This document shows, piece after piece, positions 4,343 to 33,053 of a stretch of DNA of 33,053 nt. Within the stretch, counting starts at the first letter, position 1. Every line of letters begins with the position of its first letter. Position numbers and translations under genes: made by a program. Source of the stretch: a virus (taxonomy: Duplodnaviria; Caudoviricetes); the IMG/VR virus record IMGVR_UViG_3300048599_000810, positions 1 to 33,053 of that record; one strand, written 5' to 3'. The notes under the pieces were generated by a model. That model had not been told where the DNA came from. It did not search any database and saw nothing but the letters and a program-made list of their open reading frames with translations.

Positions 4343-4488
4343 CGCCATCGACATGTCGATGAGGGCGAATCGGATTTCTCAAAGTTCTTTGGTGGCATGC
4401 ACGGTGCGCAACCCGCTGGATTCCAGCGGGTTGCTTCGCTTTTGGGGCTGCCCCTCGGCCTGAATCTGCGGCCGCCATCGACAAGTCG
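4343..4488. promoter_or_regulatory. Pair of operator-like sites
   Basis: Perfect palindrome CATCGACATGTCGATG at 4346-4361. CGCCATCGACATGTCG (4343-4358) recurs with 15/16 identity at 4473-4488. Confidence 0.5.
4408..4444 (+). terminator. Perfect inverted repeat, intrinsic-terminator-like
   Basis: GCAACCCGCTGGA-T-TCCAGCGGGTTGC (13-bp arms) followed by TTCGCTTTT. Confidence 0.55.
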
Positions 4489-4594
4489 CCAGTTGGGGAC
4501 GACAGGCCCGCATCACCCATCACCGCCCCGGCGAGCACCAAGCCGGACCTGTCGCTCCCCGGGGCCTTCTGGCCATGCCAGGAAGGTCCGGCCC

Positions 4595-5116
4595 ATGTCG
4601 ACTCGCGCCATCGATCCATCCACCCTCAAGTTCGCCAAGTCCCTCGTTCGCATCAAGGCCAGGCAACTCCTCCGCGTCATCCGCGATCCCGCGACGAGCA
4701 GTCAGCAGGACCTGGAGCAGGACCTGCTCCTGGAAGTGGTCGTCCGCTGGCCCGGCTTTGATCCCAATCGCGGCAACGCCGAGGCGTTCGTCGAGAGCGT
4801 CGTCCGCGCCAAGCTCTGCAAGATGCTCCGCGACGCCAAGCGGGCCAAGCGGGTGCAAGGCCCGACCGTCAGCGCCGACGGCGGCGACGCGATCGATCCC
4901 GCCGACGATCTTCGCGTCCTGTGCATCCGCATGGATGTCGAGACTGTCGTTGGCAAGCTCGACGCCGTTAAGCGCAGCGTGTGCGATCAGCTGCTCCGCG
5001 AGTCAGTGAGCGAGGCGGCGCGCCAGCTCCGCACGCCGCGCTCCACACTGGAGTACGCGGTTAACAGCGTGCGCGATCGCTTCGAGAAATCAGATGTTGA
5101 TCAGTATTTCTCGTGA
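4595..5116 (+). CDS. Phage-encoded sigma-70/ECF-like sigma factor
   Basis: Region-2-like DLEQDLLLEV...FDPNRGNAEAFVESVV and region-4-like HTH SVSEAARQLRTPRSTL. Confidence 0.8.
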   Translation: MSTRAIDPSTLKFAKSLVRIKARQLLRVIRDPATSSQQDLEQDLLLEVVVRWPGFDPNRGNAEAFVESVVRAKLCKMLRDAKRAKRVQGPTVSADGGDAIDPADDLRVLCIRMDVETVVGKLDAVKRSVCDQLLRESVSEAARQLRTPRSTLEYAVNSVRDRFEKSDVDQYFS

Positions 5117-5124
5117 ACACGTCC

Positions 5125-5154
5125 CGCGACGGGTTAGGTGCTCTATGGCAGCAC
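5125..5154 (+). promoter_or_regulatory. Conserved motif copy 1, putative phage promoter of the replication operon
   Basis: CGCGACGGGTTAGGTGCTCTATGG (5125-5148) is identical to 18342-18365. Intergenic, just before the gene at 5184. Confidence 0.7.
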
Positions 5155-9302: not shown

Positions 9303-11542
9303 TGGCCAGCACCCATACGCACAACCTGCTCGACGCGGCCCGGTGGTACCGGTCGCGCGGCTACGCGCTTATTCCGGTGCCGGCGTCCACCAAGGTCCCT
9401 GTGCTGGTGGGCTGGCAGGAACTGCGACTGACCGATGAGGACCTGCCCCGCCACTTCAACGGGAACGGCAACCTTGGCCTGCTCCTGGGCGAGCCGAGCG
9501 GATGGCTGGTCGATGTCGATCTCGATTGCGACGAGGCGGTGGCGCTCGCGCCCGAGTTCTTGCCGCCCACGGGCGCGAAGTCGGGCCGCCCCGGCAAGCT
9601 CGCGTCGCACTGGTGGTACGTCTGCGAGGGGGCCAAGACGCGCAAGCACCAGGACCCGGTCTCCAAGAAGATGATCGTGGAACTGCGGAGCACCGGCGCG
9701 CAAACGGTCGTCGGCCCGAGCATCCACCCCAGCGGCGAGCCGTACGACCCGGTCGAAGGCGAGCCCGCGGTGATCGACCACGCGGAGCTGGCGGCAGCGG
9801 TTACGGCGCTTGCCGAGGCTGTCCTGGAGCGTCGCGGGCGCAAGTCACGTTGTCTTGACCAGCGATCACCGCTCTTCAAGTCGGCTTCACCAGCGATCCC
9901 GTGTGAGCACATCGAACGCCGCGCCGCGGCGTACCTCGACCGCATCCCGCCGGCGATCTCGGGCTCGGGCGGCCACGGCCAGACCTATGCGGCCGCGACG
10001 GCGATGGTGCACGGGTTCGGGCTTGATCCCCAAGCGGCGTTTAGCCTGCTGTGGGACCGGTACAACCCGCGATGCGAGCCGCCGTGGTCGGAGAAGGAAC
10101 TTCGCCACAAGGTGACCGACGCCGCCAGTAAGCCGCACGACCGGCCCTTCGGCTGGCTTCGTGATACAGGCCCCGCCGAGGCGAGCGACGTCGATCTCTC
10201 TGGCTTGGTCGTGCGAGGTCGCGCGCCGGTGGCCGACGCGATTTCGTCGCCCGCGCCGGAGGATCCCGGCCTTCTGCCGCCCGAGGCCCTGCGCGTGCCC
10301 GGCTTCGTCGGCGAGGTGATGGACTACTGCCTCGCCACCGCGCCCTACCCGAGCCAGACGCTGGCGTTCTGCGGGGCGTTGGCGCTGCAGGCGTTCCTGG
10401 CGGGCCGCAAGGTCCGCGACCCCGGCGACAACCGCACCAACATGTACCTGCTCGGCCTCGCGCATTCCTCCTCCGGCAAGGACTGGCCCCGCAAGATCAA
10501 CGCCCGCGTGCTCCAAGCCGTCAGCCTCGGCACCGGGCTGGGCGACCGGCTCGCGTCGGGCGAGGGCGTGCAGGACGCGATGCAGTCCACGCCGACGATG
10601 CTGTTCCAGACCGACGAGATCGACGGCCTGCTGCAGTCGATCAACCGCGCCCGCGACGCCCGCTTCGAGTCGATCATGGGGACGCTGCTGACGATGTACT
10701 CTGCGTCCAACTCGATCTTCCCGATGCGCCGCAAGGCCGGGCAGAACGAGCCGGGCGTCATCGATCAGCCGTGCCTGGTGCTGTTCGGCACGGCGATCCC
10801 GAACCACTACTACGCCGCGCTCTCCGAGCGCATGCTCACCAACGGGCTCTTCGCGCGCATGCTCATCCTGGAAGCCGGCCCGCGCGGGGCTGGCCAGGAG
10901 CCGACCGTCAGCGAACTGCCCGAGCGCGTTCTCGCTGCGGCCAAGTGGTGGTCGGACCTGCGCACCGGTCCGGGCAACCTCGCCAACGCCCACCCCACGC
11001 CGCGGGTGGTGCCGCACACCGACGAGGCCCGAGCGCTGCTCGTTGAGCTGCGCAAGGCTGCCGAGCAGGCGTACGGCGAAGCCGAGGGCCGGCGCGATGC
11101 TGTCGCGACGACGGTGTGGGGGCGGGCCAGCGAGCAGACCCGCAAGCTGGCGCTGATCTACGCCGTCAGCGAGAACCACGCCGAGCCCGCGATCGGCGTC
11201 GAGGCGGTGCGGTGGGCGTCGCGCCTGGTGATGCACCAGACCAGGCGGATGCTGTTCATGGCCGCCAACCACGCGGCCGAGACGCCCTTCGACGAGCTCG
11301 CGCTGCGCGCGATGCGGAAGATCCGCGAGGCACCCGAGCGGTCGCTGCCGCACAGCGTGCTGCTCAAGCGGATGAAGATGGACTCCCGCTCGTTCCACGA
11401 TCTCATCGACACGCTCGTGCAGCGCGGCGACGTGCTGGCGGAGTCGGCGGCAACGACCGGTCGGGCAGCCCTGATCTACCGATTGGCCGAGAAGGAAGGT
11501 GAAGGAAGGGTGAAAGAAGAGGGGTCAAAATGCGGGTTGTAG
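9302..11542 (+). CDS. Bifunctional primase/polymerase with PriCT-like and DUF3987-like helicase domains
   Basis: NLGLLLG...LVDVDLD...SHWWY...ELRS...PSIHP Prim-Pol motifs, PPWSEKEL PriCT-like segment, P-loop AHSSSGKD and DEID. Confidence 0.88.
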   Translation: MASTHTHNLLDAARWYRSRGYALIPVPASTKVPVLVGWQELRLTDEDLPRHFNGNGNLGLLLGEPSGWLVDVDLDCDEAVALAPEFLPPTGAKSGRPGKLASHWWYVCEGAKTRKHQDPVSKKMIVELRSTGAQTVVGPSIHPSGEPYDPVEGEPAVIDHAELAAAVTALAEAVLERRGRKSRCLDQRSPLFKSASPAIPCEHIERRAAAYLDRIPPAISGSGGHGQTYAAATAMVHGFGLDPQAAFSLLWDRYNPRCEPPWSEKELRHKVTDAASKPHDRPFGWLRDTGPAEASDVDLSGLVVRGRAPVADAISSPAPEDPGLLPPEALRVPGFVGEVMDYCLATAPYPSQTLAFCGALALQAFLAGRKVRDPGDNRTNMYLLGLAHSSSGKDWPRKINARVLQAVSLGTGLGDRLASGEGVQDAMQSTPTMLFQTDEIDGLLQSINRARDARFESIMGTLLTMYSASNSIFPMRRKAGQNEPGVIDQPCLVLFGTAIPNHYYAALSERMLTNGLFARMLILEAGPRGAGQEPTVSELPERVLAAAKWWSDLRTGPGNLANAHPTPRVVPHTDEARALLVELRKAAEQAYGEAEGRRDAVATTVWGRASEQTRKLALIYAVSENHAEPAIGVEAVRWASRLVMHQTRRMLFMAANHAAETPFDELALRAMRKIREAPERSLPHSVLLKRMKMDSRSFHDLIDTLVQRGDVLAESAATTGRAALIYRLAEKEGEGRVKEEGSKCGL

Positions 11543-11654
11543 ACACATACACACACTTCTTTCTCTCTTTCACCTTCTTACCCCCACCCCCGCGTGCGCG
11601 TATGTATGTGTCTGCGCGACCCCGGGGGGTGAAAGGTGAAAGAAGGGTAAGAAG
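11491..11654. repeat. Purine/pyrimidine-skewed direct and inverted repeats, putative replication origin
   Basis: GGTGAA(A/G)G repeats; inverted pairs AGACACATACA (11541-11551)/TGTATGTGTCT (11603-11613) and CTTCTTACCC (11574-11583)/GGGTAAGAAG (11645-11654). Confidence 0.55.
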
Positions 11655-11744
11655 CCCCCTGCCGACCACGCGATGCAGGTGGCGTGCCAGGCCGCGCCTA
11701 GCGGGAGCCTTACAGCCGGAGTCCGAACGGAGGCGGGGAGGGGG

Positions 11745-11920
11745 CAATAGGTACTCCGCCGGGGGGGACCGGTCTCGAAACGCCCGCGGGAACAGCCGCA
11801 AGTATCGGGTCAGTTTGTTGTAGCCGTCCGCGTGCCGGAACGCCGCCCGGCGGGGGTTGGTAGCCCGACCCCCAAGGAACGCGACGTGGGCCAACGTGGG
11901 CGGACCCGTGGCCAACGGGC
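11745..11920 (+). other. Putative cos-like packaging site
   Basis: AGGTACT...CGCGGG layout resembles lambda cosQ-cosN; CGTGG(G)CCAACG repeats at 11885 and 11907; noncoding DNA at the start of the packaging arm. Confidence 0.35.
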
Positions 11921-12089
11921 GGCGTCCGTAGCGGGCTAGACACGGGCGGAACTCCGCCACCAACGGACGGGCCCGACTGCCCGAGCGATCCAGCCAACCA
12001 GCGATCCACCGAACCTCGGACCTGCCGCATGTGCGGCTGGCCACCACGACGCCACGCACGCCGCCTCGGCGCGCACGACGGAGATCGCT

Positions 12090-13466
12090 GTGAACATCGA
12101 AACCCTTCCCATCGACGCGGTCCACGAATACGACCGCAACCCCCGCACCATCAACGACGCCGCCATCGACGCGGTGGCCAAGAGCATCCAGGCCTTCGGG
12201 TTCAAGGTGCCGATCCTGATCGACGCCGACGGCGTGATCATCGCCGGTCACACGCGGCTCCGCGCCGCGCGGAAGCTCGGGCTCAAGGAGGTGCCGACCA
12301 TCCGCGCCGCCGATCTGACGCCGGAACAGGTCAAGGCGCTGCGCATCGCCGACAACAAGGTCGCCACGCTGACATCGTGGGACATGGAACTCCTGCCGCT
12401 GGAGCTGGCCGACCTCAAGGGCGTGGACTTCGATCTCGCGCTGCTCGGCTTCAGCGCCGAGGACCTCAGCGCCATCATGGCTCCCGCCGGCAATGAGGGC
12501 CTCACCGATCCCGACGACATTCCTGGGCAGCCCGACGCCGCGACGACGGTGCCCGGCGACATCTGGGTGCTCGGCAACCACCGGCTGATGTGCGGGGACT
12601 CGTCCAAGCCCGAGGACCTGGATCGTCTGCTTGATGGCCAACCGATCCATCTCGTCAACACGGACCCGCCTTACAACGTGAAGGTCGAGCCGCGTTCGAA
12701 CAACGCGATCGTCGCAGGGCTGAGTTCATTTGCGCTTGGGAAGAAGGCCAACGCCGACGAGCACGATCAGCAGAGCGCTGATCTCAACCGCTACCCGGAG
12801 AAGAGCCGCGCCACGCACAAGAAGCTCCGGGCCAAGGACCGGCCGCTCGCCAACGACTTCGTGTCCGATGACGAGTTCGACCGGCTGCTCGCGGCGTGGT
12901 TCGGGAACATCACCCGCGTGCTCATCCCCGGCGGCACGTTCTACATCTGGGGCGGGTATGCCAACTGCGGCAACTACCCGCCGGTGCTCAAGCGGTGCGA
13001 GCTTTACTTCGCGCAGGCGATCATCTGGATCAAGGAGCACCCGGTCCTGACCCGCAAGGACTTCATGGGCAATCACGAGTGGTGCTTCTACGGCTGGAAG
13101 GAAGGCGCTGGGCACCGCTTCTTCGGCCCGGCCAACGTGCCGGACACGTGGTCGATCAAGAAGGTCAACCCGCAGAGCATGGTCCACCTCACCGAGAAGC
13201 CCGTCGAACTCGCGCGGCGGGCGATCGAGTTCTCGTCGCGCCCCGGCGAGAACGTGCTCGATCTCTTCGGCGGCAGCGGCTCCACGCTCATCGGCGCGGA
13301 GATGACCGGGCGGCACGCGTTCCTCATGGAGCTCGACGCGCTCTACTGCGATGTCATCGTGCAGCGCTGGGAGAAGTTCACGGGCCGCAAGGCGGAGCGG
13401 CTTCCGGCAAAGGGTGCGGCCGAAGAGAAAGCCGCGACGAGCGTCGCGGCTGGGAGCAAGGCGTGA
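12090..13466 (+). CDS. ParB-N domain fused to N6/N4 DNA methyltransferase
   Basis: NPRTIN...IIAGHTRLRAA ParB/Srx domain; TDPPY motif IV preceding DLFGGSGST motif I (beta order). Confidence 0.93.
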   Translation: MNIETLPIDAVHEYDRNPRTINDAAIDAVAKSIQAFGFKVPILIDADGVIIAGHTRLRAARKLGLKEVPTIRAADLTPEQVKALRIADNKVATLTSWDMELLPLELADLKGVDFDLALLGFSAEDLSAIMAPAGNEGLTDPDDIPGQPDAATTVPGDIWVLGNHRLMCGDSSKPEDLDRLLDGQPIHLVNTDPPYNVKVEPRSNNAIVAGLSSFALGKKANADEHDQQSADLNRYPEKSRATHKKLRAKDRPLANDFVSDDEFDRLLAAWFGNITRVLIPGGTFYIWGGYANCGNYPPVLKRCELYFAQAIIWIKEHPVLTRKDFMGNHEWCFYGWKEGAGHRFFGPANVPDTWSIKKVNPQSMVHLTEKPVELARRAIEFSSRPGENVLDLFGGSGSTLIGAEMTGRHAFLMELDALYCDVIVQRWEKFTGRKAERLPAKGAAEEKAATSVAAGSKA

Positions 13467-13474
13467 TGAACGCC

Positions 13475-13741
13475 TCACTCGTCGAGGTTCGGGAGCGGGC
13501 CGTCGGCCGCTTCGTCCCATTCAAGGGCGTAGCGCTCGGCGATGTCCTCGAGGTCGTGCTCGGTGAGGTAGTCGGCGGTCTTCCGCTCTTGGCAGGCCGC
13601 GACGGCTCGGGCGAGGTCCGTCCACTCCTCGATCGTGACCATCCGGTCCTGCCGCGCTCCGAGCAGGTAGAGCGCGGCCTGCAGCACGGCATCGAGTTGG
13701 GCTTGGGTCGGCGCGGGCTGCGGGGCGGGGGTGGCGCTCAT
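13475..13741 (-). CDS. Small acidic hypothetical protein
   Basis: 88 aa ORF, GGGAG RBS, 3 nt after the HARE-HTH gene. Confidence 0.75.
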   Translation of the reverse strand: MSATPAPQPAPTQAQLDAVLQAALYLLGARQDRMVTIEEWTDLARAVAACQERKTADYLTEHDLEDIAERYALEWDEAADGPLPNLDE

Positions 13742-13744
13742 GGT

Positions 13745-14284
13745 TCAGGCTCCCTTCCCCGCGACAAAGACGCCGCGTTCGTGCTTCTTGAACCGCGCGG
13801 CGGAGCCCTTGGCGGCGATCTCCCGGATGATGGCGGCGTAGAGCGTGGCCTCGGGCGTCTTCCCGCCGGGGCTCGTCCACAAGCCCTTGGCCTCCATCGC
13901 GGCGATCATCTCCTTGGCCCGCATCGGCACTTCGCTCGCGGCGAGCACTTGTGCGGCGGCGTCCAGAGCGCTCACACGCTTGGCCTTGGGTTCCTTCACG
14001 GCCTTGAGCGTCTTGGGGGCCTTCTCCCCCTTCGCCTTCTTGCCCTTGGCGGCCGCGCCGAGGTTCGCGTTGTTGGCGACCTCCTTCGCGGTGGGGACCT
14101 CGTGGTCCTGCTTCCCGTCCGCCAGCCGGTCGTTGATCTCCGCGAGCGCCGCCTTGCGGAGGCGCTCGGTCTTGGCGGACGCCGTGGCGGGCGGAGCGCT
14201 CTTCGCTGCCTTGCGGGCCTTCCACGCGTCGCTCATCTCGTTCTTGACCTTGCCCATGTTCTTGATCGTGCCTTTGCGAGCCAT
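13745..14284 (-). CDS. HARE-type winged HTH protein with Lys/Ala-rich N-terminus
   Basis: [23 protein letters not shown]...[16 protein letters not shown]...RFKK...GVF; AAGGAG RBS. Confidence 0.85.
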
Positions 14285-14383
14285 TTGAAACTCCTTCTGT
14301 CTGGTGCGGAATCCCGTCGCACGCTGCGGCGGGAAAGCGTGGCCGTCGCGGTTTCCCGCGACGCCGCGTGGGCGGGGTGGGGG

Positions 14384-14668
14384 TCAGCAGCCAGCGACGC
14401 GCTCCATCTCGTTGAGCACCTCGTGGACCATCGAGTTGGTGGCGGCGGCTTGGCCCCGGCGGTCGGTCCCGTAGACCTCCTTGGCGACCTCGGTCGCTTT
14501 CGCATAGCGGCTCTCCCGGTTCTCGTCGCGTGCGATGTGCGCGATGCAGATGTCCTGCCTCCCCGCGTGGCGCGTGTGCTGTTCGATGGTCACCTCCGCT
14601 CCGCGCTCGGTGCGGCTGATCTTCACGTCCTTCTCGATGCCTTCGATCACGATCGTTCTGATGTTCAT
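14384..14668 (-). CDS. Hypothetical protein (94 aa)
   Basis: AAGGAG RBS, GC3-biased codons. Confidence 0.75.
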   Translation of the reverse strand: MNIRTIVIEGIEKDVKISRTERGAEVTIEQHTRHAGRQDICIAHIARDENRESRYAKATEVAKEVYGTDRRGQAAATNSMVHEVLNEMERVAGC

Positions 14669-14698
14669 GGCGGTGCTCCTTGCGCTTGGTGGTTCTGG

Positions 14699-14962
14699 TC
14701 ACTCGGCGTCGTTCAGAAAGGCCTCGACGTGCTCGGGGTCCATGTTGCTGAGGAACCCGACCAGGTCGATCAGATCGCTGCGGACCTTCCCGAGGCTTCC
14801 CGCGAAGCCCCAGTTGCGTGGGTCGGCCTTGGCCCCCTCCGCGTGCTTGTCGAGTTCCATCTGCAGCACGTCCATCAGGCGGGCGATGTCGTTGCGGCGT
14901 GCGGCGTACGTCTCGGCGGCGGTGGGTTCGGCCTTGGTGGTCTTGGGGGTGCGCTTCGTCAT
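14699..14962 (-). CDS. Hypothetical helical protein (87 aa)
   Basis: AAAGGAG RBS; ...DPRNWGFAGSLGKV... motif. Confidence 0.78.
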   Translation of the reverse strand: MTKRTPKTTKAEPTAAETYAARRNDIARLMDVLQMELDKHAEGAKADPRNWGFAGSLGKVRSDLIDLVGFLSNMDPEHVEAFLNDAE

Positions 14963-15022
14963 GGTCGTGCTCCTTTGGGTTGGTGGTCTCTGGTAAACAG
15001 CGAAGCCCGCATTACGCGGGCT

Positions 15023-15373
15023 TCAGGTCGTCGGGTGGTTGTCGTTCTTGCGGTCCCAACTCGTCGTGTCTTTCGGCTGGCCGACCGCCCGGAGGTAGTC
15101 GACCAACTCGTCGGCGGCCCAGGTGTCGCCGTCGATCGCGTCGTGCTCGTTGGGTGCGTCGGTATCGCGGTCGATCTCGAAGAGGCGGAAGCCGCCGAGC
15201 GACCCGGGGCGTGGTCCCCAATGGCCGTCAAGGTGGCGGCCGCGTCCTGCGGGGACCGTCGCGATGTTCCAGGTGCGCCCGTCGGGCGTGTGGATCTCGA
15301 TCGCGGGGATGTGGAACCCGCTCTTGGCCAGGGTCTTGGCGAGGTCGATCGTGGTCTTCGTGGTCGCGTTCAT
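15023..15373 (-). CDS. Hypothetical protein (116 aa)
   Basis: GGAG RBS before ATG 15373; first gene of the leftward cluster. Confidence 0.75.
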   Translation of the reverse strand: MNATTKTTIDLAKTLAKSGFHIPAIEIHTPDGRTWNIATVPAGRGRHLDGHWGPRPGSLGGFRLFEIDRDTDAPNEHDAIDGDTWAADELVDYLRAVGQPKDTTSWDRKNDNHPTT

Positions 15374-15428
15374 GTTCGTGGTCTCCGTCGCGTGCGGGGG
15401 GTGCGTTGTTCCCGCTCGCGTATGACAC

Positions 15429-15457
15429 ACATTGGCCGGCTGATGGGGAACAGGCAA
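15429..15457 (-). promoter_or_regulatory. Weak sigma-70-like promoter for the leftward cluster
   Basis: Minus strand TTGCCT-N17-CAATGT. Confidence 0.3.
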
Positions 15458-15492
15458 GGCGTTAAACGCTCATTTCTCGATGATTCTGCGAC

Positions 15493-15526
15493 ATGTGGGC
15501 AACTGCGTCCGCGATGTGGGCAACTG
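15493..15526. repeat. 13-bp direct repeat, 21-bp period
   Basis: ATGTGGGCAACTG at 15493-15505 and 15514-15526 in the divergent intergenic region. Confidence 0.7.
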
Positions 15527-15543
15527 TGCGCGGGAGGTCCGCG

Positions 15544-15813
15544 ATGACTCCCGAACACGCGCCTAGTTCCGGGCCACCAGCGGGCGGACAGGGAATGTCC
15601 CGGCTAAACCCTGCGGCGATGGCGGTGGCCGACGCCGCGCGCGTGCTTACGCGCCTGGGCGGCAAGCCCGTCACCGAGGACATGCTCGAAGCCGATATCG
15701 ACGCGGGAGCGCCGACGAACGCGGACGGCAGCGTGAACCTCGTGCACTACGCGGCATGGCTCGTCAAGGACATGGCCACGCGCAGCGGAACCGGAGGTGC
15801 CGGTGGCGATTGA
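15544..15813 (+). CDS. Putative terminase small subunit (Nu1-like wHTH)
   Basis: GGAGG RBS, directly upstream of TerL; ...GAPTNADGSVNLVHYAAWL wing motif. Confidence 0.65.
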   Translation: MTPEHAPSSGPPAGGQGMSRLNPAAMAVADAARVLTRLGGKPVTEDMLEADIDAGAPTNADGSVNLVHYAAWLVKDMATRSGTGGAGGD

Positions 15814-18088
15814 CCCGCGCAAACTCAAGCCCGGCGAACTCGCGCGGCTGCTCAACAGCACGCCCCTGGGCGAGGTGATCAGCGAGCGCCAGCTCCACCG
15901 GCATCGCACGCGCGCGGGGTTCCGCGTCGCCGCCGATGGGGACGCTGGCAAGGTCGACCTGTTCCGTTACGTCGCCTGGCTCGTGATCACTCGGCACGAG
16001 GCGATTGCGGAAGCCGCTCGCGAGCCCGAGGGCCTGACCGGCTACGAGGCGATGAAGGAGCGTGCCCGGCTCCGCAACGCGATGCTCTCACTCTCGGGGC
16101 GCGACATCGGCGACTTGCCGCCGGTCGCTGATGCTGGTCGCAAGGAGAGAGCCGCGCGGGACTTCAGGTACTTCTGCGAGGCGTACTTCCCTCAGACGTT
16201 CCACCTGAAGTGGTCTGACGACCACCTCAAGGTCATCGGCAAGATCGAGCAGGCGGTGCTCGAGGGCGGGCTCTTCGCGATGGCGATGCCACGCGGTTCG
16301 GGCAAGACCTCGCTCTGCGAAACCGCCTGCCTGTGGGCGCTGGTGTACGGGCACCGCGACTTCGTGGCGCTCATCGGGTCCGACGAGGAGCACGCGGCCG
16401 ACATGCTCGAATCGATCAAGGTCGAGCTGGAGAGCAACGAGATCTTGGCCGGCGACTTCCCGGAGGTCTGCCACCCGATCCGTTCACTCGAGGGCATTCA
16501 CCAAAGGGCGTCGGGGCAGCTGTTCCAGGGCAAGCAGACGCACATCGGCTGGACCGCCCGCGAGGTCGTGCTGCCGACGATCGCCGGGTCCGAAGGGTCG
16601 GGTGCCATTATCCGCGTCGCGGGAATCACCGGTCGCATCCGCGGCATGAAGCACAAGCGGGCCGACGGCACCTCGGCCCGTCCGTCGCTGGTGCTCATCG
16701 ACGACCCGCAGACCGACGAGAGCGCCCGCTCGCCGTCGCAGTGCGCCAACCGCGAACGCATCCTCGCCGGCGCGATCCTGGGATTGGCCGGGCCCGGCAA
16801 GAAGATCGCGGGGCTCATGACGCTGACGGTGGTGCGCCCCGACGACCTTGCCGACCGCATCCTGGACCGCGACCAGCACCCGCAGTGGCAGGGCGAGCGG
16901 ACCAAGATGGTGTACGCCTTCCCGACGCGAGATGCGATGTGGCAGCGGTACGCCGAGCTACGCGCCGACGGGTTCAGGAACGATCGCGGCATCGCCGAGG
17001 CCACTGCGTTCTACAAGCAGCACCGCACCGCAATGGACGAAGGTGCCGCGATCGCATGGCCGGAGCGGTTCAACCACGACGAACTGTCGGCGATCCAGCA
17101 CGCGATGAACCTCAAGCTGCAGGACGAGGCGGCGTTCTTCGCCGAGTACCAGAACGAGCCGCTGCCCGAGATCCAGTCCGCTGACGACCTGCTCACCCCC
17201 GACCAGATCGCCGCGAAGCTCAACGGCCATGCTCGGGCGGAGATCCCGCTGGGGTGCTCGCGGCTGACGATGTTCATCGACGTCCAGGGCAAGGCGCTGT
17301 TCTACCTCGTGGCCGCCTGGGAGGACGACTTCACGGGCTATGTCATCGACTACGGCACCGAGCCCGACCAGAAGCAGGGGTACTTCACGCTCCGCGACAT
17401 GCGCCGCACGCTCGGGGCCGAGTCGCCCCGTGCCGGCGTTGAGGGGGCGATCTACGCGGGCCTCGAGCGTCTGGCCGAAACGCACTTGGCCCGCGAGTGG
17501 CGGCGGGACGACGGGGCGATGGTCAGGATCGATCGCTGCGTCATCGACGCGAACTGGGGCTCGTCGACAGACGTGGTGTACCAGTTCTGCCGCCAGAGCC
17601 CGCACGCGGGCGTGCTCATTCCGAGTCACGGCCGATACGTGGGCGCGAGCAGCATCCCGTTCAGCGACTACAAGCGCAAGCGCGGCGAGCGGATCGGCCT
17701 CAACTGGCGCGTGCCGGTGGTGACCGGCAAGCGGAGCGTTCGGCACGTTCTCTTTGACACGAACTACTGGAAGTCGTTCGTGCATGCACGCCTCGCGGTA
17801 CCGATGGGCGACCCCGGGTGCCTGTCGCTCTTTGGGAGCAGGCCCGAGCCGCACCGTCTGCTGGCCGAGCATCTCTGCAGCGAGTACCGCGTGAAGACCG
17901 AGGGTCGCGGCCGCACCGTCGACGAGTGGAAGCTGCGGGTGGAAGGCCTCGACAACCACTGGCTGGACTGCTTGGTCGGCACCGCCGTCGCGGCGTCGAT
18001 GCACGGCGCTGTGCTGTTCGGCACCGATCACAAGGTCGTCGCGCGGCCCCGGCTGAAGCTCTCGGAGCTGCGGGGGAAGACATCATGA
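15803..18088 (+). CDS. Terminase large subunit (GpA-like) with N-terminal wHTH-like extension
   Basis: Walker A MPRGSGKT, Walker B LIDDPQ, nuclease motifs MFIDVQ and DNHWLDC; upstream of the portal. Confidence 0.9.
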   Translation: MAIDPRKLKPGELARLLNSTPLGEVISERQLHRHRTRAGFRVAADGDAGKVDLFRYVAWLVITRHEAIAEAAREPEGLTGYEAMKERARLRNAMLSLSGRDIGDLPPVADAGRKERAARDFRYFCEAYFPQTFHLKWSDDHLKVIGKIEQAVLEGGLFAMAMPRGSGKTSLCETACLWALVYGHRDFVALIGSDEEHAADMLESIKVELESNEILAGDFPEVCHPIRSLEGIHQRASGQLFQGKQTHIGWTAREVVLPTIAGSEGSGAIIRVAGITGRIRGMKHKRADGTSARPSLVLIDDPQTDESARSPSQCANRERILAGAILGLAGPGKKIAGLMTLTVVRPDDLADRILDRDQHPQWQGERTKMVYAFPTRDAMWQRYAELRADGFRNDRGIAEATAFYKQHRTAMDEGAAIAWPERFNHDELSAIQHAMNLKLQDEAAFFAEYQNEPLPEIQSADDLLTPDQIAAKLNGHARAEIPLGCSRLTMFIDVQGKALFYLVAAWEDDFTGYVIDYGTEPDQKQGYFTLRDMRRTLGAESPRAGVEGAIYAGLERLAETHLAREWRRDDGAMVRIDRCVIDANWGSSTDVVYQFCRQSPHAGVLIPSHGRYVGASSIPFSDYKRKRGERIGLNWRVPVVTGKRSVRHVLFDTNYWKSFVHARLAVPMGDPGCLSLFGSRPEPHRLLAEHLCSEYRVKTEGRGRTVDEWKLRVEGLDNHWLDCLVGTAVAASMHGAVLFGTDHKVVARPRLKLSELRGKTS

Positions 18089-30623: not shown

Positions 30624-31512
30624 GAACCAGTCTGACATTGCGGCGCTCCAGGCCGGGCTGAAGGCGCGAAAGCCGTCGCGAGATGGCCTTCGCCTCTACA
30701 CCGCCGACTTCGACTCCGTGTCGCTCGGCGGGTTCTACCGCGGGCGTTCGGCCTTCTTGATCCTGTCGGGCCCATCGCTCACGCAGATCGACCTCGCCGC
30801 GCTCAACAAGCGCGGCATCGTCACGATGGCCGTGAACAACGCCTGGGCGGTGCATCGCCCGACGCTGTGGACCTGCGTTGACGATCCCGGCCGCTTCATC
30901 GATACCGGCTGGAAGGACCCTGGCATCTTGAAGTTCGTGCCCACGTGCATGTGGGACAAGCGGCTCCGCATCCAGGGCGCTGACGGCGTGATGCGCAACA
31001 GCGCGTTCAGGGTCCGGCAGATGCCCAGCGTCATGTTCTTCCGCCGCGCGGATCACTTCGACCATGAGCGGTTCCTGACTGGAGATAGCGTCCCGTGGGG
31101 AAACGACGCCAAGAACCCAGACTCTTTGGGCATCACCGGCAAGCGCTCGGTCATGCTCGTGGCACTCCGCCTCTTGCACTACCTCGGCTTCAGCACGGTG
31201 TACCTGCTGGGCTGCGACTTCAAGATGGCCGAGGACCGCAAGTACGCTTTCGCCGAGAACCGGGCTGCGAACGCGATCCGGCACAACAACGTGCTCTATG
31301 ACTCGCTGGCACGGCGCTTCGAGGCTCTCAAGCCGCACTTCGAGAAACACCGCTTCCGCGTGGTGAACTGCTCGCCGGGCAGCGAACTGCAGGTCTTCGA
31401 GCGCATGGAGTTCGCCGACGCCGTCGCGGCCGCGTCGGCCGAGTGCGGCAAGCCGGTAAACACGCAGGGCTGGTACGAGCCGAATGTGAAACCCCAGGAG
31501 GCCGCACGATGA
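30616..31512 (+). CDS. Maf/DUF115 (MptE-like, CstII-like fold) putative glycosyltransferase; start between 30598 and 30616
   Basis: LILSGPSL...MAVNN...CVD...SVMLVALRLLHYLGFSTVYLLGCDF...VVNCS signature. Confidence 0.75.
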   Translation: MRENQSDIAALQAGLKARKPSRDGLRLYTADFDSVSLGGFYRGRSAFLILSGPSLTQIDLAALNKRGIVTMAVNNAWAVHRPTLWTCVDDPGRFIDTGWKDPGILKFVPTCMWDKRLRIQGADGVMRNSAFRVRQMPSVMFFRRADHFDHERFLTGDSVPWGNDAKNPDSLGITGKRSVMLVALRLLHYLGFSTVYLLGCDFKMAEDRKYAFAENRAANAIRHNNVLYDSLARRFEALKPHFEKHRFRVVNCSPGSELQVFERMEFADAVAAASAECGKPVNTQGWYEPNVKPQEAAR

Positions 31513-33053
31513 GCGACGGCCCCACCCGCTACTACCTCTATATCCCGGTCTGGGCTACGGGCCGCGCCCCGCAGGGCGGCGGCTCGAGCAACTACTCGAC
31601 GCCGTCGGAGTCGCCAGACTCGTCGTACAGCACGTACTCAACGCCCACCAGCACGCCGAGCATGCCGCCGAGCTACTCGACGACCGGCGATGTGATCTAC
31701 ACAACCGGGCCGGGCGGCACGCCGACGCTGACGTTCTACACCACCGATGCGTTCACCAGCAACACGCCGGGCACCACGCAGACGCCATCGAGCAGCGGGC
31801 CGATGTCATCGAGCGGTTCGGGAAGCACGCCGACGAGCGACACCCCGAGTTCCATGTCTTCGAGCTCCTCGGGCTCGAGCATGAGCAGCTCCGGCGGCGG
31901 CAGTTCGTCGGGAATGAGCTCATCGGGCGCTTCGTCCGGCATGAGTTCCGGGGCGTCCAGCGGCATGTCGTCGGGGGCGAGTTCCGGCATGTCCTCGGGC
32001 GGGTCCTCTGGAGGATCGTCCGGAGGGGGCAGTTCGGGCGGCGGTTCGTCGGGCGGGGGCGGGTCCAGTGGCGGCGGGAGCGGTCCAGGCGGCTCGGGTC
32101 CCGGAGGCTCCGGCCCTGGCGGTTCTGGGCCGGGAGGGTCGGGCCCTGGGGGAAGCGGGCCGGGTGGTTCTGGTCCCGGTGGCTCGGGGCCGGGTTCCAA
32201 CTGCGTGCTGGCGGGAACGCCTGTGCGGCTGGCCTCGGGCCAGACCGTGCCGATCGAGCATCTCAAGCCGGGCGACCGGGTCGCGGCGCTGGACGTGGCG
32301 GGCCTGGATCGCGATGTGCCGTGGCGAGCGCAGTACCAATGGCTGCGTCAGCGAGCCGAAGCGGTGCTCACGCCGGTCATCGGTTCCGTGGCCAGCGTGA
32401 AGATCGGCACGCACGACGGGTTCGTCACCATCAACGGTCGCCTGCGGCTCACGCCCGAGCACCCGGTGCTCCTGCGCCGCGGCGATGAGGTCGGGTTCGT
32501 GTCGGCGGAGTTCGTACTCGTCGGCGATTATCTCGTACGGCACGACCTCAGCGAAGAGCGCGTCGAGACGATCAGCCGCGCCGGCGATCGCATCACCACA
32601 GTCGCGGTCCATGTGCCCGGCCTCAACGTGTTCCTGGCCGACGGCGTGTGGGTCCACAACGACATGCCCGCGACGCAGGCGACCGGGTCGGGATCGGCCT
32701 CTGGATCAGGGTCTGGCTCTGGCTCGGGATCAGGGTCTGGCTCTGGCTCGGGATCAGGCTCCTCCAGCGGCAGCGGGTCGGGTTCCGGCAGCGGCAAGTC
32801 CAGCGGCTCGTCTATGTCGAGCTCTGGAAGTTCTTCAGGATCTGGCAGCTCATCTGGTTCATCGAGCGGCAGTGGAAGCGAAAGCGGTTCCGGCCCGCCC
32901 GGTTCCGGCTCAGGCTCCGGCAGCGCCCAGCAGTCGGTGGCGCTCGGCGAGGGCGCGTCGTCGTTCATCGAGGGAGGCATCGAGGGCGTGCCGCCCGCCA
33001 AGTGGCAGCAGAGTGGATTGAGCAGTGGCATCGAAGAGGAGGTGAAGGCGTGA
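31509..33053 (+). CDS. Ser/Thr/Gly-rich protein with central Hint (bacterial intein-like) domain
   Basis: ATGA overlap. Hint domain 32202-32660: CVLAGTPV, IEHLKPGDRV, TPEHP and terminal VHN. Flanked by low-complexity tracts. Confidence 0.88.
   Translation: MSDGPTRYYLYIPVWATGRAPQGGGSSNYSTPSESPDSSYSTYSTPTSTPSMPPSYSTTGDVIYTTGPGGTPTLTFYTTDAFTSNTPGTTQTPSSSGPMSSSGSGSTPTSDTPSSMSSSSSGSSMSSSGGGSSSGMSSSGASSGMSSGASSGMSSGASSGMSSGGSSGGSSGGGSSGGGSSGGGGSSGGGSGPGGSGPGGSGPGGSGPGGSGPGGSGPGGSGPGGSGPGSNCVLAGTPVRLASGQTVPIEHLKPGDRVAALDVAGLDRDVPWRAQYQWLRQRAEAVLTPVIGSVASVKIGTHDGFVTINGRLRLTPEHPVLLRRGDEVGFVSAEFVLVGDYLVRHDLSEERVETISRAGDRITTVAVHVPGLNVFLADGVWVHNDMPATQATGSGSASGSGSGSGSGSGSGSGSGSGSSSGSGSGSGSGKSSGSSMSSSGSSSGSGSSSGSSSGSGSESGSGPPGSGSGSGSAQQSVALGEGASSFIEGGIEGVPPAKWQQSGLSSGIEEEVKA
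32082..32198 (+). repeat. (GPGGS)x7 plus GPGS coding repeat
   Basis: Seven 15-bp units with identical peptide and different codons. Confidence 0.9.
32703..32758 (+). repeat. Exact 24-bp tandem repeat (2.3 copies) in a GS tract
   Basis: GGATCAGGGTCTGGCTCTGGCTCG twice plus GGATCAGG. Confidence 0.9.

Follow-up and report, generated by a model that had tools for sequence, protein, structure and literature searches.

A conserved stop-free antisense frame across an inverted gene cassette of planctomycete prophages and its possible role as a ribosome bridge

In a 33,053-nt stretch of a Caudoviricetes genome (IMG/VR record IMGVR_UViG_3300048599_000810; the whole stretch is called here the window), a rightward methyltransferase gene is separated from the terminase genes by five leftward genes, and the + frame across the insert (13466..15547) comprises 693 codons with 0 stops in the ORF analysis of the window. 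The phage is of a dsDNA prophage type, with terminase, portal and capsid genes. Sequence comparisons with relatives confirmed that the stop-free frame is a real, conserved feature of a planctomycete prophage family. We suggest, with a probability of about 0.63, that it is a translated spacer across a swappable leftward cassette, the peptide itself being immaterial. The features concerned are as follows.

12090..13466, + strand: ParB-N/DNA methyltransferase gene (PF02195 and PF01555, phrog_498); its stop overlaps the start of the bridge ORF
13430..13451, − strand: possible terminator of the leftward cassette, hairpin with U-rich tail; a weak candidate, as the scan found 3 sites with 3.2 expected by chance
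13463..15547, + strand: bridge ORF, GTG 13463 or ATG 13466 to a TGA that overlaps the following ATG; 693-694 codons, antisense to the cassette with codons aligned
13475..13741, − strand: g1, 88 aa, function unassigned; third positions most variable
13745..14284, − strand: g2, 179 aa, Lys/Ala-rich N-terminal part and HARE-HTH domain (PF05066, E 2.5e-8)
14384..14668, − strand: g3, 94 aa, ORF with function unassigned
14699..14962, − strand: g4, 87 aa, phage family without assigned function (phrog_14596, E 1.5e-4; unnamed viral clusters)
15023..15373, − strand: g5, 116 aa, ORF with function unassigned; other families take its place in relatives
15429..15457, − strand: putative leftward promoter read from the sequence, TTGCCT, 17 nt, CAATGT, within the 170-nt gap
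15528..15560, + strand: predicted hairpin in which the GGGAG ribosome site pairs with codons 2-3 of the gene that follows (MFE and centroid structures)
15544..15813, + strand: putative small terminase gene, 89 aa, so called from its position before the GpA-type large terminase
15797..18088, + strand: large terminase gene, GpA type (PF20454, phrog_38)

Each of the five minus-strand ORFs runs from ATG to TGA and has a Shine-Dalgarno-like motif upstream. An earlier note on this DNA had placed them in one register, with gaps of 3, 99, 30 and 60 nt, and had described the codon-aligned + frame as open over 693 codons, through the leftward genes, the spacers and the 170-nt promoter gap; recomputation gave the same results. 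The single register follows from the GC-richness of these genes, in which no antisense frame other than the codon-aligned one can stay open. The + frame in fact opens further upstream, at 12872, which gives 891 codons, 198 lying within the methyltransferase gene. At the left junction, TGATG lies at 13464-13468 with GGGAG 9 nt upstream of the ATG at 13466; the methyltransferase stop also shares bases with an in-frame GTG at 13463 (GTGA). At the right junction the TGA of the frame, at 15545-15547, shares bases with the ATG at 15544, as had been stated before. For the window alone the chance probability was ~1.6e-4, computed before adding end-coupling as the product of the shared register (1/81), the openness of the genic part (0.30) and that of the non-genic part (0.043). 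A single window from a large scan could be luck, and it is the relatives that decide the matter.

Close inserts were defined as distinct inserts with a methyltransferase identity of at least 75% (n = 113, the window included); all counts are plain tallies over related, non-independent inserts. These inserts span 1.5-3.8 kb and show 84 lengths and 32 gene orders. Despite this turnover the codon-aligned + frame was stop-free in 113/113, with 3-39 stops in each other frame, and among all distinct inserts it was stop-free in 117/124. One coupled ORF led from the methyltransferase stop to the putative small terminase start in 109 of the 113 close inserts and in 16 of 34 distant loci. Two ORFs were needed in 9 further distant loci, the second starting 1 base before the stop of the first in 5 of these, and 9 of the 34 required at least three steps or had no relay. 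The close inserts without a one-step coupled ORF were four (L035, L191, L202 and L045), with no relay of any kind in L045.

Both ends of the frame were conserved as well, with the stop/start overlap (NTGA or TGATG) kept in 97/113 close inserts on the left and 107/113 on the right. The ATG-and-GGGAG start described in the earlier note is present, but the place of GTG 13463 holds a start codon in 97/113 close inserts vs. 76/113 for the ATG at +2, and is the likelier start; the codon itself varies between GTG, ATG and TTG. Seven frame-changed inserts bear a new GGAGG and an ATG at +16. The bridge ended at +1 in 107 and at +20 in 6 of the 113. The g2-g3 and g3-g4 spacers take 9 lengths each, every one a multiple of three, and the g2 family was in register in 112/112 calls among relatives. 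Whole segments are swapped, the length of the bridge ranges from ~500 to 1,260 codons, and bridges are present also in loci of 55-61% GC. An IS110-like insertion in one relative (L031; family assigned by eye from the translation) is open in an alternative frame, with 0 stops vs. 9 and 21. The earlier note had pointed to relatives as the place to look for persistence of register, openness and coupling at both ends; all of these persisted through gene turnover, and the matched controls described below failed.

Results showed that, as far as codon usage tells, the + frame is kept open by selection against stop-making codons. TCA, CTA and TTA, which correspond to + strand stops, are absent from the cassette genes and are used in the flanks: TCA occupied 0/77 cassette serine columns vs. 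58/159 in the flanks, and CTA 0/80 vs. 68/193 (p about 1e-12 for the TCA/CTA comparison). ACA, GCA, CCA and GTA do occur in cassette genes. SoFic genes were antisense-stop-free in 14/14 cassette copies vs. 1/24 elsewhere. A single bridging ORF was found in 0/66 DUF3489-type inserts, which have the same layout, and the same phages showed no relay over their upstream non-coding gap in 65/71 and in all three length classes. TCT (antisense AGA) was found in 3/77 cassette columns vs. 45/159 in the flanks, with other codons depleted at similar p, so that there is only a hint of rare-codon avoidance in the bridge frame.

The same comparisons showed little constraint on the bridge peptide. The leftward genes are about as variable at synonymous sites as the flanks are, with a slight dip in four-fold divergence for g3-g5 (0.27-0.30 vs. 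0.35 for the methyltransferase and 0.44 for the large terminase), and first positions of bridge codons vary like synonymous sites (0.26-0.32). No third-position excess was seen in the non-overlapped tail, which encodes 94 different peptides across 107 loci. No family or homologue of the bridge ORF was found with Pfam, PHROG and NCBIfam profiles and homologue searches, nor any among candidates of 381-1213 aa. Thus neither purifying selection on the protein nor homologues of stable length, both marks of a functional antisense protein gene, were observed.

We propose that a ribosome that has finished the methyltransferase would start again at the overlapping start codon, cross the cassette and terminate at the first codon of the putative small terminase gene. 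The rightward lytic transcript would come from upstream of the methyltransferase, pass the cassette and reach the terminase genes. Ribosome cover, which presumes transcription-translation coupling in Planctomycetota, would protect the otherwise untranslated RNA, 1.5-3.8 kb in length, against Rho and nucleases and may help RNA polymerase to survive head-on traffic. The terminating ribosome might then unfold the hairpin that covers the ribosome site of the terminase, and reinitiate. The best reading of the sequences is that the bridge would guard against polarity and couple terminase translation across a noncontiguous operon; it may also silence the cassette. Rho_N was detected in 3/3 host-type genomes. 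The insert's + strand is rich in U, yet its G outnumbers C (731 vs. 663), unlike a classical C-rich Rho site. The RNA data, from four runs, consist of unstranded contigs from at most 2 samples, and the runs hold records of up to 60-195 kb, suggesting DNA. The DUF3489-type phages, which have the same layout without a bridge, speak against it, and the 550-nt gap upstream of the methyltransferase is not bridged, so ribosome cover is not needed everywhere.

The region of the 15528..15560 hairpin had no significant z-score, but the ribosome-site hairpin is conserved in relatives. The label of small terminase given in the earlier note holds by position before the large terminase; 15544-15813 had no Pfam, PHROG or NCBIfam match, and the PDB profile search returned nothing below E 0.06. 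A structural lead (TM 0.61 to a cluster with 11% Phage_Nu1) was under the tool's threshold. A repeated 24-mer of the phage occurs only at 5125 and 18342, with none before the terminase. On the leftward side, the upstream hexamer block of the putative promoter is kept in 98/113 close inserts; the sigma-70 consensus scan did not call this site and found 0 promoters. An Rfam search of 11400-16000 gave five matches, all far under the gathering score. No defence annotation was found for the five core cassette genes, and the cargo of some relatives includes SoFic (363 bits), a PDC-S31 match and a Doc/MazE-type pair.

The simplest alternative, that GC3 bias leaves in-register antisense frames open by chance, draws on a GC3 of about 0.9, on TTA, CTA and TCA making up only ~0.5% of codons in the + genes of the window, and on the genic part being open at p 0.30. 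Yet the flanking genes use TCA and CTA at a like GC3 (0.89-0.90), the SoFic, DUF3489 and upstream-gap controls all fail, the variable spacers are all multiples of three, and bridges occur at 55-61% GC too; with the openness in relatives, the codon absence and the SoFic contrast, we rejected chance as having a negligible probability. A readthrough polyprotein of the five leftward genes, with the open + frame as a by-product, would suit the five window stops, all TGA in one frame. It was likewise rejected, and is hardly credible, as relatives have TAA, TAG and stacked stops between the genes; each gene also has its own ribosome site and ATG, and neither the open promoter gap nor the missing TCA and CTA would be accounted for. 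That the frame extends the methyltransferase C-terminus through frameshifting or stop readthrough is very improbable, although it is open for a median of 595 nt back into that gene and in L035 and L045 the bridge lies in the methyltransferase's own frame, directly after the stop. How far the frame stays open upstream differs between loci, from 0 to >3,000 nt, with no more than 13-49 nt in several of them; the frame offset varies too (103, 8 and 2 inserts across three offsets), and start codons stand at the junction in 109/113; on these grounds a deep frameshift fusion was rejected.

A true overlapping gene with a functional protein, which the earlier note had kept as its alternative, would fit the ribosome site, the operon-type overlaps at both ends and the somewhat lower four-fold divergence of g3-g5. 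We hold it improbable in view of the bridge's range in length with swapped segments, first positions as variable as synonymous sites, the patternless tail, the free synonymous variation and the lack of any family or homologue found. Another reading, unlikely in our estimate though still to be reckoned with, accepts translation of the frame and sees its main selected job in silencing the leftward cassette on induction: the ribosome-coupled rightward polymerase would win collisions and shut off lysogeny or defence genes harmful to the lytic cycle of the phage itself. Such a role agrees with the bridge and differs in the selected output only. It is favoured by the defence-type cargo of relatives, by the S. 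aureus phage 80alpha, described as switching its Tha defence via a noncontiguous operon (PMC11087260), and by an E. coli construct reported to repress the opposite gene up to 38-fold (bioRxiv 10.1101/2020.09.23.310730). Silencing alone, however, accounts neither for a frame that terminates on the following start codon in 107/113 inserts nor for the conserved ribosome-site hairpin, and the five core genes carry no defence annotation. The ribosome bridge, one of the two readings of the earlier note, is supported by the relatives and failing controls and is favoured over the true overlapping gene.

No description of such a bridge was found in the largely open-access literature searched. On balance we regard it as probable that the "bridge ORF" is a new, sequence-free class of genetic element, one that carries the ribosome-polymerase couple across an exchangeable inverted accessory or defence cassette, keeps the packaging genes expressed, silences the cassette, filters entry to in-register genes and insertion elements without TCA, CTA and TTA, and has spread across planctomycete prophages. 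More cautiously, it could be labelled a variant of the noncontiguous operon; we prefer the new class, as the ORF itself, taken as a selected element, was not found in print. An atlas of noncontiguous operons presents as a puzzle that transcription must persist over long untranslated antisense stretches (PMC11034616). The bridge, if true, would be a different answer, namely to fill the stretch with a disposable ORF, and would explain how noncontiguous operons work where transcription and translation are coupled. It would also amount to a hidden rule on which genes may enter an accessory hotspot. Its signature (shared register, no TCA/CTA/TTA, overlaps at both ends) can be scanned for; annotation pipelines drop such shadow ORFs.

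The DUF3489 layout of Acidithiobacillus phage AcaML1 and Ralstonia phage YO164_3 has the same order of methyltransferase, leftward cassette and terminase, including an HTH-like gene in the cassette, but its registers are mixed. Noncontiguous operons such as S. aureus menEC and phage 80alpha cI/tha-ith (PMC11034616, PMC11087260) resemble the present locus in that same-strand genes flank opposite-strand genes with their own (here inferred) promoter, in a temperate phage and, in some relatives, with defence-type cargo. The crossed region there is described as untranslated and explained by runaway transcription in Gram-positives (PMC11034616), whereas here, where co-transcription is itself a supposition, it is one conserved ORF coupled at both ends that forces 3-7 modular genes into one register. 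In ambigrammatic narnaviruses a long opposite-strand ORF is reported to be kept with an apparently non-functional peptide, translation being its proposed function (PMC8316113, PMC8155312). A selected open ORF with an unconstrained peptide was likewise found here, and the bridge, if true, would be the natural bacterial-virus counterpart, with translation and not the product selected. Narnaviruses are, however, eukaryotic RNA viruses with one such ORF per segment, opposite the RdRp or Robin ORF, whereas the bridge belongs to a bacterial dsDNA prophage, extends over several genes with their spacers and a promoter, and connects two operon genes on either side. In E. coli, long antisense transcripts are reported to have increased 6.5-fold with a translated antisense ORF, and the interference to have nearly disappeared once silent antisense stops were present (bioRxiv 10.1101/2020.09.23.310730). 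This engineered "interfering ORF" is alike in that a translated antisense frame sustains the processivity of RNA polymerase and represses the gene on the other strand, both being properties of the E. coli construct. It is synthetic, covers a single gene and has no coupled downstream gene, whereas the bridge would be its natural multi-gene form.

In the window, the insert (the stretch from the methyltransferase end to the small gene) carries five leftward ORFs, g1-g5 (the cassette; 13475-15373, − strand), crossed by a rightward codon-aligned antisense frame, the bridge. The open frame is real, conserved and under selection, and its function is one we infer. As the earlier note had described, the five ORFs share one register (spacing 3, 99, 30 and 60 nt), and the + frame stays open from 13466 to 15547; its stop-free stretch actually begins at 12872. 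Each of the five ORFs has a ribosome site. The claimed ATG at 13466 (+) does overlap the methyltransferase stop, as does an in-frame GTG at 13463, which is the better-conserved start. For the window alone, the chance of this arrangement is about 1/81 (register) x 0.30 (genic part open) x 0.043 (non-genic part open). In the alignment of relatives, third positions are more variable than first and second positions in 5/5 leftward genes, and therefore these genes are real.

The 33-kb virus window holds a temperate-phage gene set by family and profile matches (serine recombinase, sigma-like gene, helicase, primase) and further encodes a ParB-methyltransferase, a GpA-type large terminase, portal, capsid and tail tube. 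A large ORF at 31443-33053 (+) contains Gly/Ser/Pro repeats and matches a Hint domain weakly. The small gene (15544-15813, +) is a putative small terminase, labeled from its position. In several genomes, querying with it gave weak second matches in frames of 759-789 aa, lying about 200 nt downstream, and the large terminase (15797-18088, +) may have at its N-terminus a domain resembling the small gene. Close relatives lie mostly within genomes named as Phycisphaerales or other Planctomycetota. Further features used below are:

4397-5116: sigma-like phage gene
5125-5148 and 18342-18365, + strand: 24-mer in two identical copies, upstream of the replication operon and of the head operon
11542-12090: non-coding gap (about 550 nt) in which DNA blocks are strongly conserved across relatives

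Locus searches returned 335 loci; with the window, 251 contained two anchors, the methyltransferase end and also the small gene (loci too short for both were dropped), giving 124 distinct inserts, which are not independent of one another. The antisense frame was stop-free in 117 of them, including 113/113 close inserts (methyltransferase identity of at least 75%; none excluded), and the 7 with stops have identities of 63-72%. The close inserts measure 1,506-3,793 nt, with 84 different lengths and 32 gene orders, so that openness despite gene turnover, proposed earlier as a check, was borne out, as was the spacing: g3-g4 and g2-g3 spacers show nine lengths each, every one a multiple of three. 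When genes were called in all three minus frames of the close inserts, the six largest families (112, 106, 83, 78, 54 and 52 members) fell entirely in register, and calls out of register look like shadow ORFs.

The codons TCA, CTA and TTA, stops on the + strand, were absent from 33,206 cassette-gene codons of 59 loci, vs. 178, 30 and 2 in 45,468 codons of the flanking + genes. Counting by alignment column, which lessens the effect of relatedness, gave TCA in 0/77 cassette vs. 58/159 flanking columns and CTA in 0/80 vs. 68/193; GC3 is equal in both, about 0.9. The cargo of the cassette differs between loci; SoFic, a PDC-S31 match, a Doc/MazE-type pair and DUF6900 are among it. All 14 SoFic copies in cassettes, several near-identical, lack an antisense stop (0 in 5,662 codons); elsewhere just 1/24 lacks one (92 stops in 8,811 codons), and still only 1/15 at GC3 of at least 0.80. 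TCT (AGA on the + strand) occupies 3/77 serine columns in g1-g5 vs. 45/159 in flanks, a possible avoidance of rare codons within the bridge frame. One locus has about 1.9 kb inserted in the promoter gap (in the window, the 170 nt between g5 and the small gene), with a + oriented 390-codon transposase-like gene (IS110-like by eye) that the bridge passes in an alternative frame with 0 stops.

A start codon at −1 overlaps the methyltransferase stop in 97/113 close inserts (GTG 86, ATG 6, TTG 5). The remaining 16 have ATG at +2 (4), ATG at +23 (1), no start (4) or a new GGAGG and ATG at +16 fitting their shifted frame (7). The overlap with the small-gene start was likewise recovered, an ATGA-type junction closing the frame in 107/113; in 6 it stops 20 nt inside the small gene. 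If ribosomes may restart up to about 20 nt from a stop, a relay crosses the insert in one step in 109/113 close inserts, in two steps in two (L035, L191) and in three in one (L202), and fails in L045. There the frame is open over 3.7 kb in the methyltransferase's own frame directly after its TGA, and no start is coupled to that stop; this may reflect an assembly slip, readthrough or decay. The distant loci number 34: the scans gave 11, and a further 40 regions gave the 23 in which a methyltransferase end could be identified. In these, with a lenient end window, the relay took one step in 16, two in 9, three in 2 and four in 4, and failed in 3. In 5 of the 9 two-step loci the long ORF starts 1 base before the stop of the first + ORF; therefore the coupled start shifts with gene content.

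Selection is on openness and the two junctions, rather than on the product. Four-fold sites of the leftward genes coincide with first positions in the bridge's codons; their divergence is 0.27-0.38, compared with 0.35 for the methyltransferase, 0.33 for the small gene and 0.44 for the large terminase, and g3-g5 dip slightly. Within the promoter gap, where the + frame alone could code, third positions are no more variable than first ones, and 107 loci yield 94 distinct bridge tails. The peptide gave no family, and no homologue in a search spanning 381-1213 aa.

Phages of Acidithiobacillus and Ralstonia share this layout, their leftward gene being of the DUF3489 type (82 loci, 66 distinct with both anchors). 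None of the 66 has an antisense frame that is stop-free across the full insert, although one 706-nt insert is open when its final 135 nt are disregarded; relays took one step in 0/66 and two in 3/66, and 54/66 were not spanned. The three two-step coupled relays (L398, L404, L373) are partial or convergent bridges, or chance. GC in these controls is 0.56-0.67, slightly below the window's, yet planctomycete loci at 55-61% GC are bridged. Within the same phage family, the primase-methyltransferase gap of about 550 nt occurs in all three length classes, 65/71 without a relay. The Rfam search of 11542-12090 returned no match; this gap might serve as a packaging site or promoter, or give rise to a structured RNA.

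We infer, with a probability of roughly 0.63, that the bridge is a translated spacer, which would carry ribosomes, and hence polymerase, over the cassette and hand the ribosomes on to the terminase start. This reading draws on the following. In E. coli the trailing ribosome shields RNA from Rho and antisense transcription is suppressed by Rho (PMC13323073); also in E. coli, an ORF running antisense across an opposing gene kept polymerase processive and repressed the gene it crossed, an effect nearly abolished by silent stops in the ORF (bioRxiv 10.1101/2020.09.23.310730). Rho_N was found in 3/3 host-type genomes. The 24-mer, likely a promoter for the phage's own sigma-like factor, occurs in the window only at 5125 and 18342, and therefore expression of the terminase genes seems to require a transcript begun upstream of the cassette; the copy about 2.8 kb beyond the small-gene start is also kept in 6 relatives whose sequence extends that far. 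Finally, the small-gene ribosome site is predicted to pair with codons 2-4 (0.78 vs. 0.43 after synonymous recoding), which are identical in 112/113 close inserts, while the folding z-score around this site was not significant.

Against the translated spacer stand the unbridged gap of about 550 nt upstream of the methyltransferase, the excess of G over C on the + strand of the insert, and the minority of loci missing a one-step bridge. The chief rival holds that the bridge mainly serves to shut off the cassette; we consider silencing unlikely in that role, and it may operate alongside the translated spacer. Hairpins in the spacers between leftward genes, at 14285-14383 (z −3.2) and 14963-15030 (z −2.95), fold better than shuffles and are possible processing or pause sites.

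A search of the openly accessible literature showed no account of such a bridge ORF. In gene arrangement, the layout is that of a noncontiguous operon; published descriptions treat the region crossed in such operons as untranslated (PMC11034616, PMC11087260). The narnavirus reverse ORF follows the same logic as the bridge, which is not itself a member of that group (PMC8316113, PMC8155312).
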